From: Escherichia coli
GTDB lineage: Bacteria > Pseudomonadota > Gammaproteobacteria > Enterobacterales > Enterobacteriaceae
Strand: one strand, 5' to 3'
Assembly: GCF_044324875.1 (NCBI RefSeq)
Contig: NZ_CP172185.1
DNA: 64,000 bases
In this document: piece by piece, positions 13,237 through 42,206 of the stretch
Layout: the number at the start of each line of letters is the position of its first letter
How positions within the stretch are numbered: the stretch's first letter is position 1
Notes under the pieces: model-generated
Told to the model about the DNA's origin: nothing
Databases searched by the model: none
Seen by the model: only the letters and a program-made list of their open reading frames with translations
Made by a program: the position numbers and the translations under genes

Positions 13237-14328
13237 ATGCGTTTTCTGCGCCGACCAATATCGCTGCGCCAACGGCTGATATTGACCATTGGGGCCATTT
13301 TGTTGGTGTTTGAGCTGATCAGCGTCTTCTGGCTATGGCATGAAAGTACCGAGCAGATTCAGCTGTTTGAGCAGGCGCTACGCGACAATCGCAACAACGA
13401 TCGCCACATCATGCGTGAGATCCGCGAGGCGGTCGCCAGCCTGATCGTCCCCGGCGTCTTTATGGTCAGCCTGACGCTATTTATCTGCTATCAGGCGGTA
13501 CGCCGCATCACCCGGCCGCTGGCGGAGCTGCAAAAAGAGCTGGAAGCGCGCACCGCCGACAACTTAACGCCTATTGCCATTCACAGCGCCACCCTCGAAA
13601 TCGAAGCGGTGGTTTCGGCGTTGAACGATCTGGTCAGTCGCCTGACCAGCACGCTGGATAACGAAAGGTTGTTTACCGCTGACGTCGCGCACGAACTGCG
13701 AACGCCACTGGCGGGGGTGCGTTTGCATCTGGAACTGCTGGCGAAAACGCATCACATTGATGTAGCACCGTTAGTGGCTCGACTTGATCAGATGATGGAG
13801 AGTGTCTCCCAGCTGCTGCAACTGGCGCGTGCCGGACAGTCATTTTCTTCCGGGAATTATCAACATGTAAAACTGCTGGAAGATGTCATTCTCCCCTCGT
13901 ATGACGAACTCAGTACCATGCTCGACCAGCGACAGCAAACCCTGCTATTGCCAGAGAGCGCCGCCGACATCACCGTTCAGGGTGATGCAACCCTGCTGCG
14001 GATGTTATTGCGAAACCTGGTAGAAAACGCCCATCGTTACAGCCCGCAAGGCAGCAACATTATGATTAAGCTGCAAGAAGATGGCGGAGCGGTCATGGCC
14101 GTTGAAGATGAAGGACCGGGTATTGATGAGAGTAAATGCGGGGAGTTGAGTAAAGCGTTTGTACGTATGGACAGCCGTTATGGCGGGATTGGTCTGGGGT
14201 TAAGTATTGTCAGCCGCATTACACAGTTGCATCACGGGCAGTTTTTCCTGCAAAACCGGCAAGAGACTTCCGGCACGCGGGCCTGGGTACGGCTGAAGAA
14301 AGATCAGTACGTGGCAAACCAGATATAA
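13237..14328 (+). CDS. basS: Sensor histidine kinase
   Basis: H-box AHELRTPL and ATPase domain motifs; start set at ATG 13237 (MRFLRRP...); ORF track starts at TTG 13228. Confidence 0.9.
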   Translation: MRFLRRPISLRQRLILTIGAILLVFELISVFWLWHESTEQIQLFEQALRDNRNNDRHIMREIREAVASLIVPGVFMVSLTLFICYQAVRRITRPLAELQKELEARTADNLTPIAIHSATLEIEAVVSALNDLVSRLTSTLDNERLFTADVAHELRTPLAGVRLHLELLAKTHHIDVAPLVARLDQMMESVSQLLQLARAGQSFSSGNYQHVKLLEDVILPSYDELSTMLDQRQQTLLLPESAADITVQGDATLLRMLLRNLVENAHRYSPQGSNIMIKLQEDGGAVMAVEDEGPGIDESKCGELSKAFVRMDSRYGGIGLGLSIVSRITQLHHGQFFLQNRQETSGTRAWVRLKKDQYVANQI

Positions 14329-14393
14329 AGAAAGCTGCTGACCACCAGCACGCTGAACACGGTAGTTAAACTTTCATAAACACGGTTTTTCAT
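14304..14393 (-). CDS. pmrR: Small membrane protein PmrR (29 aa), overlapping the 3' end of basS on the opposite strand
   Basis: Minus-strand ATG at 14393 with GGAGGA RBS 8 bp upstream; translation MKNRVYESLTTVFSVLVVSSFLYIWFATY; absent from the ORF track because of its size. Confidence 0.75.
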   Translation of the reverse strand: MKNRVYESLTTVFSVLVVSSFLYIWFATY

Positions 14394-14437
14394 TGCACTC
14401 TCCTCCGTTAACCTGGAGGAGAGTATGCGCGTCAGAG

Positions 14438-14453
14438 ATTAAGTGAACCTTAA
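14438..14453 (-). promoter_or_regulatory. Candidate BasR/PmrA box for pmrR
   Basis: Minus-strand CTTAAG-gttca-CTTAAT about 45 bp upstream of the pmrR start. Confidence 0.45.
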
Positions 14454-14504
14454 GACTTCAATTGGCCTGATAAGACAGCGTCACATCAGGCCATCCGTTT
14501 CAGC

Positions 14505-20126: not shown

Positions 20127-20215
20127 TAAGCCGGATAAGGCGCTCGCGCCGCATCCGGCAACGATGCCGACAGCCTGATGCGACGCTGACCGCGTCTTAT
20201 CAGGCTTCCCTCTCA
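20127..20215. repeat. BIME-type REP cluster between phnA and phnB
   Basis: Two inverted REP-like units (gccggataaggcgc… / …gcgtcttatcaggc). Confidence 0.6.
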
Positions 20216-21659: not shown

Positions 21660-22676
21660 ATGAACGCTAAGATAATTGCCTCGCTGGCCTTCACCAGCAT
21701 GTTCAGCCTCAGCACCCTGTTAAGCCCGGCGCACGCCGAAGAGCAGGAAAAGGCGCTGAATTTCGGCATTATTTCAACGGAATCACAGCAAAACCTGAAA
21801 CCGCAATGGACGCCGTTCTTACAGGATATGGAGAAGAAGCTGGGCGTAAAGGTCAACGCCTTCTTTGCCCCGGACTACGCGGGCATTATCCAGGGGATGC
21901 GCTTCAATAAAGTGGATATCGCCTGGTACGGCAATCTGTCGGCGATGGAAGCGGTGGATCGCGCCAACGGTCAGGTCTTCGCCCAGACGGTCGCGGCGGA
22001 TGGATCGCCGGGTTACTGGAGCGTGTTGATCGTCAACAAAGACAGTCCGATCAACAACCTGAACGATCTGCTGGCGAAGCGTAAAGATCTCACCTTCGGC
22101 AATGGCGATCCTAACTCCACCTCTGGCTTCCTCGTCCCCGACTACTACGTCTTCGCCAAAAACAATATCTCCGCCAGCGACTTCAAGCGCACCGTCAACG
22201 CCGGGCATGAAACCAACGCGCTGGCCGTCGCCAACAAGCAGGTGGATGTGGCGACCAACAACACCGAAAACCTCGACAAGCTGAAAACCTCCGCACCGGA
22301 GAAGCTCAAAGAACTGAAGGTGATCTGGAAATCGCCGCTGATCCCAGGCGATCCGATCGTCTGGCGCAAAAATCTGTCCGAAACCACCAAAGACAAGATC
22401 TACGACTTCTTTATGAACTACGGCAAGACGCCGGAAGAGAAAGCGGTGCTGGAGCGCCTGGGATGGGCCCCGTTCCGCGCCTCCAGCGACCTGCAACTGG
22501 TGCCGATTCGCCAACTCGCACTGTTTAAAGAGATGCAGGGCGTAAAAGGTAATAAAGGGCTGAATGAGCAGGACAAGCTGGCAAAAACCAGCGCCATTCA
22601 GGCGCAACTGGATGACCTGGACCGCCTGAACAACGCGTTAAGCGCGATGAGTTCGGTGAGTAAAGCGGTGCAGTAA
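21660..22676 (+). CDS. phnD: Phosphonate ABC transporter periplasmic binding protein
   Basis: 338 aa with N-terminal signal peptide; operon position. Confidence 0.95.
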   Translation: MNAKIIASLAFTSMFSLSTLLSPAHAEEQEKALNFGIISTESQQNLKPQWTPFLQDMEKKLGVKVNAFFAPDYAGIIQGMRFNKVDIAWYGNLSAMEAVDRANGQVFAQTVAADGSPGYWSVLIVNKDSPINNLNDLLAKRKDLTFGNGDPNSTSGFLVPDYYVFAKNNISASDFKRTVNAGHETNALAVANKQVDVATNNTENLDKLKTSAPEKLKELKVIWKSPLIPGDPIVWRKNLSETTKDKIYDFFMNYGKTPEEKAVLERLGWAPFRASSDLQLVPIRQLALFKEMQGVKGNKGLNEQDKLAKTSAIQAQLDDLDRLNNALSAMSSVSKAVQ

Positions 22677-22679
22677 ATC

Positions 22680-22768
22680 GTAAGTCGGATAAGACGCCAC
22701 GGCGTCGCATCCGACAATGTGCAGACGTTGATGCCGGATGCGGTGCAAGCACCTTATCCGGCCTACAG
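22680..22768. repeat. REP/BIME inside the phn operon (phnD-phnE spacer)
   Basis: gtcggataagacgc… / …gccggatgcggtg…ccttatccggcctac inverted REP units. Confidence 0.6.
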
Positions 22769-22781
22769 ACCGGAGCCAAAC

Positions 22782-27998: not shown

Positions 27999-28003
27999 GC
28001 CAG

Positions 28004-28088
28004 TGCCGGATACGGCGTAAACGCCTTATCCGGCCGACAAATGCGCTCCCCGTAGGTCGGATAAGACGCGTCAGCGTCGCATCCGACA
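28004..28088. repeat. REP/BIME inside the phn operon (phnK-phnL spacer)
   Basis: gccggatacggcgtaaacgccttatccggcc … gtcggataagacgcgtcagcgtcgcatccgac. Confidence 0.6.
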
Positions 28089-28108
28089 CCCGAACCACGA
28101 GGCGAAAA

Positions 28109-32216: not shown

Positions 32217-32534
32217 TCAATTTCTCCGCTGCTCTATTGCCGTAATCGCCTCCACGCGTTGTTGATGACGACCGCCTTCGTACTGCGCGCCCAGCCACGC
32301 ATCCACAATCATTTTTGCCAGTTCGAGGCCAACCACTCGTGAACCAAAAGCCAGTGCAACTTCACTGGCGTAATGCGGATAATCAGTACGCTCTGACGAC
32401 CTGGTTTCTTTATCAATCCCCTCACTCATTGACCATGAATAAAAGGCTGGCACAGCAACGCAGAATCCTGCGGTGCCAGCGACATGACCGCCCATTGCTC
32501 CGGTACGTTTTTTAATAAAAAACACCGGTTGCAT
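32217..32534 (-). pseudogene. rpiB: Truncated ribose-5-phosphate isomerase B remnant
   Basis: C-terminal ~46 residues (AFGSRVVGLELAKMIVDAWLGAQYEGGRHQQRVEAITAIEQRRN) and the SSERTDYPHYAS segment match RpiB as I recall it, but the central catalytic region (ICGTGVG… block) is missing and the N-terminal 40 residues are not recognisable. Confidence 0.6.
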
Positions 32535-32786
32535 TGATTAATTGTGCTCAGTATTTGCCGAAGTACAATATATATAATAAATATATAAAACACCTCATAT
32601 TATTTACAGAGATAATAAATTCGCGTACTTTTCCCTCTTCAGCACAAATGCCTAATAAAATGGCTCGCTCCGCTCACACTTCCACTTATTAAAGTCGCAA
32701 ATTCCCAATTATGATAACGCCAGCTTTAAATGACGTATTTTGCATGGATTACATATTTACGACACAAATGATAAATGGAGATTTAT

Positions 32787-39820: not shown

Positions 39821-39950
39821 AATGTCTGCCGCGTGATGGCTGTCACGCGGTATTTCGTTTCGTCACGTCAAAACTGACGACAGCCTGTTTTTCGTCAGAG
39901 TTTTGAATAAATAGTGCCCGTAATATCAGGGAATGACCCCAAATAAAATG

Positions 39951-39966
39951 TGGCATAAAAGATGCA
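39951..39966 (+). promoter_or_regulatory. Sigma-54 (-24/-12) promoter of fdhF
   Basis: TGGCAT-aaaag-ATGCA matches the TGGCAC-N5-TTGCA consensus, about 50 bp upstream of the fdhF ATG; an inverted repeat cgtcacgtcaaaactgacgacag about 80 bp further upstream is a candidate FhlA UAS. Confidence 0.55.
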
Positions 39967-40017: not shown

Positions 40018-42165
40018 ATGAAAAAAGTCGTCACGGTTTGCCCCTATTGCGCATCAGGTTGCAAAATCAACCTGGTCGTCGATAACGGCAAAATCGTCCG
40101 GGCGGAGGCAGCGCAGGGGAAAACCAACCAGGGTACCCTGTGTCTGAAGGGTTATTATGGCTGGGATTTCATTAACGATACCCAGATCCTGACCCCGCGC
40201 CTGAAAACCCCCATGATCCGTCGCCAGCGTGGCGGCAAACTCGAACCTGTTTCCTGGGATGAGGCACTGAATTACGTTGCCGAGCGCCTGAGCGCCATCA
40301 AAGAGAAGTACGGTCCGGATGCCATCCAGACGACCGGCTCCTCGCGTGGTACGGGTAACGAAACCAACTATGTAATGCAAAAATTTGCGCGCGCCGTTAT
40401 TGGTACCAATAACGTTGACTGCTGCGCTCGTGTCTGACACGGCCCATCGGTTGCAGGTCTGCACCAATCGGTCGGTAATGGCGCAATGAGCAATGCTATT
40501 AACGAAATTGATAATACCGATTTAGTGTTCGTTTTCGGGTACAACCCGGCGGATTCCCACCCAATCGTGGCGAATCACGTAATTAACGCTAAACGTAACG
40601 GGGCGAAAATTATCGTCTGCGATCCGCGCAAAATTGAAACCGCGCGCATTGCGGACATGCACATTGCACTGAAAAACGGCTCGAACATCGCGCTGTTGAA
40701 TGCGATGGGCCATGTCATTATTGAAGAAAATCTGTACGACAAAGCGTTCGTCGCTTCCCGCACAGAAGGCTTTGAAGAGTATCGTAAAATCGTTGAAGGC
40801 TACACGCCGGAGTCGGTTGAAGATATCACCGGCGTCAGCGCCAGTGAGATTCGTCAGGCGGCGCGGATGTATGCCCAGGCGAAAAGCGCCGCCATCCTGT
40901 GGGGCATGGGTGTAACCCAGTTCTACCAGGGCGTGGAAACCGTGCGTTCTCTGACCAGCCTCGCGATGCTGACTGGTAACCTCGGTAAGCCGCATGCGGG
41001 TGTAAACCCGGTTCGTGGTCAGAACAACGTGCAGGGTGCCTGCGATATGGGCGCGCTGCCGGATACGTATCCGGGATACCAGTACGTGAAAGATCCGGCT
41101 AACCGCGAGAAATTCGCCAAAGCCTGGGGCGTGGAAAGCCTGCCAGCGCATACCGGCTATCGCATCAGCGAGCTGCCGCACCGCGCAGCGCATGGCGAAG
41201 TGCGTGCCGCGTACATTATGGGCGAAGATCCGCTGCAAACTGACGCGGAGCTGTCGGCAGTACGTAAAGCCTTTGAAGATCTGGAACTGGTTATCGTTCA
41301 GGACATCTTTATGACCAAAACCGCGTCGGCGGCGGATGTTATTTTACCGTCAACGTCGTGGGGCGAGCATGAAGGCGTGTTTACTGCGGCTGACCGTGGT
41401 TTCCAGCGTTTCTTCAAAGCAGTTGAACCGAAATGGGATCTGAAAACGGACTGGCAAATCATCAGTGAAATTGCCACTCGTATGGGTTATCCGATGCACT
41501 ACAACAACACCCAGGAGATCTGGGATGAGTTGCGTCATCTGTGCCCGGATTTCTACGGTGCGACTTACGAAAAAATGGGCGAACTGGGCTTCATTCAGTG
41601 GCCTTGCCGCGATACTTCAGATGCCGATCAGGGGACTTCTTATCTGTTTAAAGAGAAGTTTGATACCCCGAACGGTCTGGCGCAGTTCTTCACCTGCGAC
41701 TGGGTAGCGCCAATCGACAAACTCACCGACGAGTATCCGATGGTACTGTCAACGGTGCGTGAAGTTGGTCACTACTCTTGCCGTTCGATGACCGGTAACT
41801 GTGCGGCACTGGCGGCGCTGGCTGATGAACCTGGCTACGCACAAATCAATACCGAAGACGCCAAACGTCTGGGTATTGAAGATGAGGCATTGGTTTGGGT
41901 GCACTCGCGTAAAGGCAAAATTATCACCCGTGCGCAGGTCAGCGATCGTCCGAACAAAGGGGCGATTTACATGACCTACCAGTGGTGGATTGGTGCCTGT
42001 AACGAGCTGGTTACCGAAAACTTAAGCCCGATTACGAAAACGCCGGAATACAAATACTGCGCCGTGCGCGTCGAGCCGATCGCCGATCAGCGCGCCGCCG
42101 AGCAGTACGTGATTGACGAGTACAACAAGTTGAAAACTCGCCTGCGCGAAGCGGCACTGGCGTAA
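40018..42165 (+). CDS. fdhF: Formate dehydrogenase H, selenocysteine-containing molybdoenzyme
   Basis: 715 codons in one frame with an in-frame TGA at 40435-40437 (…CCARV-U-HGPSVAGLHQ…); N-terminal CPYCASGC Fe-S motif; ORF track splits it into 40018-40437 and 40486-42165 in the same frame. Confidence 0.95.
40435..40480 (+). other. UGA selenocysteine codon plus downstream SECIS hairpin
   Basis: TGA followed immediately by cacggcccatcggttgcaggtctgcaccaatcggtcggtaatggcg, which can fold into the stem-loop (ggttgcaggtctgcacc apex) recognised by SelB. Confidence 0.85.
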
Positions 42166-42177
42166 TACAGTCCTTTC

Positions 42178-42206
42178 TACAGCCTCCTTTCGGAGGCTGT
42201 TTTTTT
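42178..42206 (+). terminator. Rho-independent terminator of fdhF
   Basis: acagcctcc tttc ggaggctgt followed by ttttttt. Confidence 0.6.

Follow-up and report, generated by a model that had tools for sequence, protein, structure and literature searches.

The window, a 64-kb stretch of Escherichia coli DNA, carries the fdhF gene with a TGA codon within its reading frame, which raises the question of whether the locus is a broken gene, a pair of genes or one gene in which the TGA is read as an amino acid. The mechanical ORF list of the window presents the region as a 139-aa ORF (40018..40437, +) ending in the TGA and a 559-aa ORF (40486..42165, +) beginning at ATG 40486, 48 nt past the TGA. These are the two pieces that an earlier, sequence-only reading had attributed to a single fdhF gene cut at a selenocysteine codon. 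The element is almost certainly the selenocysteine recoding site of E. coli fdhF, and the features concerned are the following.

40018..42165, + strand: fdhF coding sequence; 715 codons and TAA with one internal TGA; product identical to PDB 1AA6/1FDO/2IV2; match to TIGR01591; RefSeq CDS at equal coordinates.
40435..40437, + strand: UGA codon 140, recoded as selenocysteine (Sec140, Mo ligand of FDH-H); in-frame TGA aligned with X140 of the crystallised protein and followed by His141; Arg333 present.

Translation of 40018-42165 showed one frame of 716 codons, in which the TGA at codon 140 was the sole internal stop, and no frameshift was found between the two pieces. With starts 468 nt apart (40486-40018 = 468 nt = 156 codons), both pieces lie in one frame, as the sequence-only reading had proposed to verify. 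Codons 141-156 of fdhF (HGPSVAGLHQSVGNGA) are absent from both pieces, since the ORF lister resumes at the first ATG past the stop, which is the internal Met157 and no real start. The more general claim that stop-based calls under-annotate selenoproteins was found to apply to a mechanical stop-to-stop ORF list but not to curated pipelines, as RefSeq calls fdhF whole, with a single 2148-nt CDS between mdtP and yjcO and, in some records, the product name 'formate dehydrogenase H subunit alpha, selenocysteine-containing'. With the locus present in 5419 of the 5426 complete E. coli genomes and treated by RefSeq as one CDS, the split is an artefact confined to the mechanical ORF list.

The region 40018-42165 encodes formate dehydrogenase H (FDH-H), a selenium and molybdenum enzyme that serves formate hydrogenlyase as its catalytic subunit. 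All 714 standard residues of the 715-residue read-through product were equal to those of PDB 1AA6 chain A, which has X at position 140, and the product was also identical to PDB 1FDI/1FDO/2IV2/7Z0T, deposited as 'formate dehydrogenase H' and likewise with X at 140. A search with Sec140 entered as Cys matched the NCBIfam profile TIGR01591 with 1095.7 bits against a cutoff of 666.25, the alignment spanning residues 6-685 and profile positions 1-672 of 672. The [4Fe-4S] cluster residues Cys8, Cys11, Cys15 and Cys42 and the active-site residues His141 and Arg333 were all present. The profile score, the structural identity and the RefSeq fdhF CDS of 2148 nt bear out the naming of the split gene as fdhF.

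The RNA immediately downstream of the TGA was evaluated by folding and by scanning with the Rfam covariance models. An imperfect hairpin, beginning at the nucleotide next to UGA140, was predicted directly 3' of the TGA, with a free energy of -14.9 kcal/mol for 40435-40480 and -19.7 kcal/mol for 40430-40484; the minimum free energy (MFE) fold agreed with the Rfam consensus structure (-19.7 to -21.2 kcal/mol). The folding energy was not exceptional when compared with dinucleotide shuffles (z = -1.33 and -1.23), with 22-25 of 200 shuffles folding as well or better. As hairpin stability alone cannot validate a SECIS, weight was placed on the covariance model and the comparative data. Rfam SECIS_2 (RF01988) matched 40430-40484 with 87.1 bits against a gathering score of 70 (E = 7.4e-19), covering model positions 1-55 of 55 without truncation, and this was the only SECIS match in the 64-kb window. 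The same segment scored 35.8 bits on SECIS_3 (RF01989), under the gathering score of 63, and the fdhF site is hence not a member of that family. The parts of the element are as follows.

40430..40484, + strand: full SECIS_2 match by covariance model, including a 5-bp outer helix (40430-40434 paired to 40480-40484) enclosing both UGA and hairpin.
40438..40477, + strand: 40-nt SECIS hairpin immediately 3' of the UGA, encoding residues 141-153; from folding, pairing across 63 sequences and PMC8659212.
40449..40465, + strand: minimal upper stem-loop (nt 15-31, where nt 1 is the U of the UGA), GGUUGCAGGUCUGCACC, the SelB-binding part; from checked positions, invariant loop, compensatory changes and PMC8659212.

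The positions of the upper stem-loop were assigned as G15 = 40449, U17 = 40451 (bulged), G23 = 40457, U24 = 40458 and C31 = 40465, with the apical loop GGUC at 40456-40459. The minimal-SECIS paper is reportedly that of Liu et al. (1998). In the published description of fdhF, the UGA lies at codon 140 and the SECIS encodes amino acids 141-153 (PMC4513850); the SECIS spans 40 nt, with an upper stem-loop of 17 nt (nt 15-31) at a distance of 11 nt from the UGA, and its determinants are the bulged U17 and the apical-loop G23 and U24 that serve as SelB contacts (PMC8659212, review). The stem-loop of nt 15-31, the 11-nt spacing, G23, U24 and the bulged U17 were all found in the window sequence. Together with the SECIS_2 match, this published anatomy identifies the site as the characterised fdhF SECIS (PMC4513850, PMC8659212), in agreement with the classical SECIS arrangement that the sequence-only reading had recognised at the TGA. 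The folding and SECIS comparison which that reading had put forward as a check gave a hairpin and the 87.1-bit match, with a stability that lies within the shuffle range.

To obtain comparative evidence, species-representative genomes were searched with the degenerate pattern Cys-Ala-Arg-Val-TGA-His-Gly-Pro, which returned at least 120 loci. The matches listed yielded 63 distinct 60-mers, forming a gap-free alignment that represents Enterobacterales, Pasteurellaceae, Shewanella and Coriobacteriales. One Rhizobiaceae locus was a chance match to the pattern with no fdhF-like sequence beyond it and was left out of the alignment. Among these 63 distinct sequences from the matches listed, 91.2% of the pair cells of the SECIS structure were paired, compared with 21-49% when the 3' partners were slid by 1-3 columns; helix 2 was paired in 89% of cells, and the GGUC apical loop was invariant in 63/63. 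Compensatory changes were observed at the pair of nt 15-31 (GC 49, UA 10, UG 2, CG 1) and at the pair of nt 18-29 (UA 50, AU 9, CG 2). The variation in the lower stem was mostly one-sided, and the outer helix (40430-40434/40480-40484) was 97.8% paired with one-sided C/U changes only and no compensatory change. The covariation score was 0.142 compared with 0.089 in shuffles, 0 of 500 shuffles reached the observed value, and doubly changed cells were more numerous than in any of the 500, a control that does not amount to a probability because the set was chosen by a pattern requiring the TGA and its flanking codons and most of its members are close relatives. De novo folding of the 63-sequence alignment with RNAalifold did not recover the SECIS hairpin. 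The alternative that it returned, a weak structure of -5.89 kcal/mol that joins nt 4-10 to nt 22-27 and lacks compensatory pairs, was rejected, having -5.8 kcal/mol in the window sequence against -21.2 kcal/mol for the SECIS fold.

The same alignment bears on the register of the bulge. ViennaRNA and the Rfam consensus draw U18 as bulged and U17 as paired with A29, and the two registers had equal energy in the window sequence (-21.2 kcal/mol each). In the 63-sequence alignment, the pair 18-29 showed 11 doubly changed cells and 2 failures, and the pair 17-29 showed 11 unpaired cells. These counts favour the published register (U17 bulged, 18-29 paired) over the one drawn by Rfam, which would not be new in kind.

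A second line of comparative evidence came from synonymous sites, which were evaluated over 300 codons in 81 ungapped homologues with >75% amino-acid identity, drawn from the matches listed. The synonymous-codon entropy at codons 141-153 was 0.23 bits, compared with a background of 1.04 bits (225 codons; Mann-Whitney p = 8.5e-7), and the lowest-entropy 13-codon windows of the 300 codons examined all fell in the region of codons 141-153. Codons 144-152 showed zero synonymous variation in the 81 homologues except at Gln150, and the variable third positions, those of Pro143, Gln150 and Gly153, are unpaired or outermost positions of the hairpin. The stretch is under both RNA and protein constraint, as its nucleotides also encode residues 141-153 including the catalytic His141, and the protein-coding constraint adds to its conservation. 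The site is more than a chance occurrence by the covariance model, the cross-genus base pairing and the synonymous constraint, and not by its folding energy.

Two groups of divergent loci were observed in the comparative set. Nine loci, from Morganella, Hafnia, Edwardsiella, Proteus and Providencia, carry GCAGCG in place of GCACCA at nt 29-32 after the UGA; the G16-C30 pair is broken in them, and their MFE fold is a continuous 6-bp upper stem without a bulged U. A bulged U is a reported requirement of E. coli SelB (PMC8659212), and these variants may represent co-variation with the hosts' own SelB. Two distant fdhF homologues from Coriobacteriales / Slackia MAGs have Arg-Val-TGA-His-Gly-Pro and GGUCUG at an equal distance from the UGA, with different stems (GUCGUCGGUCUGAUUGAC), which suggests, as far as two sequences can indicate, that the GGUC loop motif is conserved well outside Proteobacteria.

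These data bear directly on how UGA140 is read. One could suppose that it is decoded without the selenocysteine machinery, for instance by a near-cognate Trp or Cys tRNA, with the hairpin merely slowing the ribosome. Low-level SECIS-independent misreading of UGA does occur in E. coli and was the control in PMC4513850, but this explanation is highly improbable for fdhF: the SelB-specific determinants are present and the stems co-vary around a GGUC that is invariant in the 63 sequences, residue 140 of the crystallised protein is non-standard, and the recoding depends on the SECIS and on selenium (PMC4513850).

The distribution of the locus in E. coli is relevant to whether the gene is intact. 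The 2.4 kb around fdhF was found at >=95% identity in the 5419 of 5426 complete E. coli genomes noted above; the other 7 gave no fdhF match, four matches lie on records labelled plasmid, and two copies occur in one genome. Over the 81 nt with the site at their centre, 5404 of 5420 E. coli records were >=99% identical, and the most divergent 81-nt variant examined had only synonymous changes, located outside the hairpin core. An fdhF pseudogene, in which the TGA would be a nonsense mutation and only the 139-aa fragment would be made, would explain why the mechanical ORF list splits the gene, and some ribosomes do terminate at UGA140 (PMC4513850). The probability of a pseudogene is nevertheless exceedingly small, given that the TGA and its surroundings are kept in these 5419 genomes and at no fewer than 120 loci of other genera in several bacterial orders, that the 575 codons downstream are open and identical to the crystallised enzyme, and that a dedicated SECIS directly follows the TGA. 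The notion of two separate genes, one for a 139-aa N-terminal protein and one for a 559-aa protein started at ATG 40486, has the position of that ATG 48 nt after the TGA in its favour but next to no likelihood, as the ATG is Met157 of a solved single-chain structure, codons 141-156 are conserved as protein including the catalytic His141, RefSeq has one CDS, and the TIGR01591 alignment is unbroken over residues 6-685.

Selenocysteine recoding at UGA140 is the best explanation of the site. The frame, the protein identity, the SECIS model match and the conserved RNA structure signature belong to the present sequence itself, and the steps that follow from them can be proposed from the literature. 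As a ribosome on the fdhF mRNA arrives at UGA140, the RNA just downstream would form the SECIS hairpin, whose apical part, i.e., the GGUC loop with G23/U24 and the bulged U17, would be bound by SelB in complex with GTP and Sec-tRNA(Sec). From this tether, 11 nt away from UGA140, SelB would compete with release factor 2 by bringing Sec-tRNA(Sec) to the A site. Selenocysteine would then be inserted and translation would proceed as far as codon 715. The product would be formate dehydrogenase H, the 80-kDa Mo-bis-MGD/[4Fe-4S] enzyme of the formate hydrogenlyase complex, while ribosomes that do not recode would stop at UGA140 and release the 139-residue fragment. The recoding of UGA140 is incomplete, at 30-40% in vivo (PMC4513850), so that the truncated fragment is expected as a by-product. 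SelB binding, selenocysteine insertion and the recoding efficiency are presumed here by analogy with the identical sequence, for which SECIS- and selenium-dependent recoding has been demonstrated (PMC4513850).

No tRNA gene was found in the 64-kb window with ARAGORN, and no sel gene in the syntenic annotation from adiA to yjcB; the tRNA-Sec gene (selC) is present in 5424 of the 5426 complete E. coli genomes. The need of FDH-H for selABCD, which the sequence-only reading had drawn from the recoding site, is established biology. A regulatory role has also been considered for the SECIS together with its outer helix (40430-40434/40480-40484). It would act as a selenium-responsive switch that sets the proportion of full-length FdhF to the 139-aa fragment, or would affect transcription via translational uncoupling. 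This role seems unlikely and would not be new in kind. A transcriptional effect via translational uncoupling has reportedly been described in a study of Treponema primitia fdhF.

The flanks of fdhF were inspected for expression signals, and two features were assigned.

39951..39966, + strand: TGGCATAAAAGATGCA, a motif resembling a sigma-54-type -24/-12 promoter, located 52 nt before the fdhF ATG; from the pattern TGGCAY-N6-TGCW.
42179..42200, + strand: intrinsic-terminator-like hairpin and T-run, 14 nt past the fdhF stop; 9-bp stem with 6 GC pairs, followed by TTTTTTT.

The gene fdhF is sigma-54/FhlA dependent. The pattern TGGCAY-N6-TGCW had a single match in the window with ~1 expected by chance, and the sigma-54 assignment of this candidate motif is consequently based on where it lies and on the known sigma-54/FhlA dependence of fdhF. 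Repeated TTTCGTCA and inverted TGACGA motifs (tttcgtttcgtcacgtcaaaactgacgacagcctgtttttcgtcag) were seen by eye at 39855-39900 (+), ~60-100 nt upstream of the sigma-54-like motif, and by position this segment is a plausible candidate for the FhlA upstream activating sequence of fdhF. A strong terminator-like hairpin right after mdtP (39827-39852, +; 11-bp stem with 6 GC pairs and a T-rich tail) divides the mdtNOP operon from fdhF. A match to the Atu_Ti3 sRNA at 42169-42204 (18.8 bits, E = 1.2) was rejected as just the fdhF terminator hairpin.

The window was collinear with the annotated strain CFSAN018748 over 32563-63986, and the context of fdhF was conserved, with mdtNOP upstream and yjcO, gltP and nrf downstream. 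At 32350-32563, the window is without ~6.6 kb present in CFSAN018748, comprising the D-allose operon alsRBACEK and the 3' portion of rpiB, so that yjdP and the rpiB remnant adjoin the region upstream of yjcS. The same junction is contiguous in 1567 of the 5426 complete E. coli genomes, and the als-less junction is hence a common polymorphism. Elsewhere in the window, the following Rfam matches above the gathering score are known E. coli features.

14297-14462, - strand: sRNA STnc630, 181 bits.
60780-60920, + strand: SraL/RyjA, near soxR, 153 bits.
20129-20206, + strand, and 22683-22763, - strand: two naRNA4 (REP-type) elements in the phn region, 85.5 and 64.6 bits.

Between phnD and phnE and between phnK and phnL (22676-22771 and 27999-28091), short stretches of intergenic sequence did not align to CFSAN018748, and the intergenic lengths differ. 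As they lie at or near REP/naRNA4 elements, these differences are probably REP copy-number variation.

The fdhF site is already known: it is the prototype bacterial SECIS, a textbook case with its own Rfam family. Since it is the founding case of selenocysteine recoding in bacteria, with its genetics, biochemistry and structure all characterised, the present observation carries little scientific weight. Its practical value is that of a positive control, in which a stop-to-stop ORF track splits a selenoprotein gene and a SECIS_2 covariance-model scan or a comparison with curated annotation repairs the split call. For the organism, it means that formate hydrogenlyase, and with it fermentative H2 production, relies on selenium supply and the sel genes.

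Comparison with the UGA140/SECIS of E. coli K-12 fdhF, the prototype of RF01988, showed the window site to be effectively the same element, as indicated by the full-length Rfam match and the FDH-H identity. The codon number, the 11-nt spacing, U17, G23, U24 and the neighbours mdtP and yjcO are the same; there is no functional difference, and the strain-level variation is synonymous and occurs in flanking codons of other E. coli genomes. The SECIS elements of E. coli fdnG/fdoG and of SECIS_3 share the layout, in which the gene for the alpha subunit of a molybdopterin formate dehydrogenase has an in-frame UGA with a SelB-binding hairpin directly after it inside the CDS, but their hairpin sequence is unlike that of fdhF, in keeping with its low SECIS_3 score. 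FdnG and FdoG are periplasmic-facing enzymes of approximately 1015 residues, and FdnG (PDB 1KQF) matched FdhF weakly (E = 7.6e-45 over residues 2-248). The eukaryotic and archaeal SECIS also recode UGA to selenocysteine by means of an mRNA structure and a dedicated elongation factor. They are of the kink-turn type and lie in untranslated regions, mostly 3' UTRs, and eukaryotes use SBP2 and eEFSec. The fdhF SECIS, in contrast, is part of the ORF, follows the UGA without a gap and is recognised by SelB itself.
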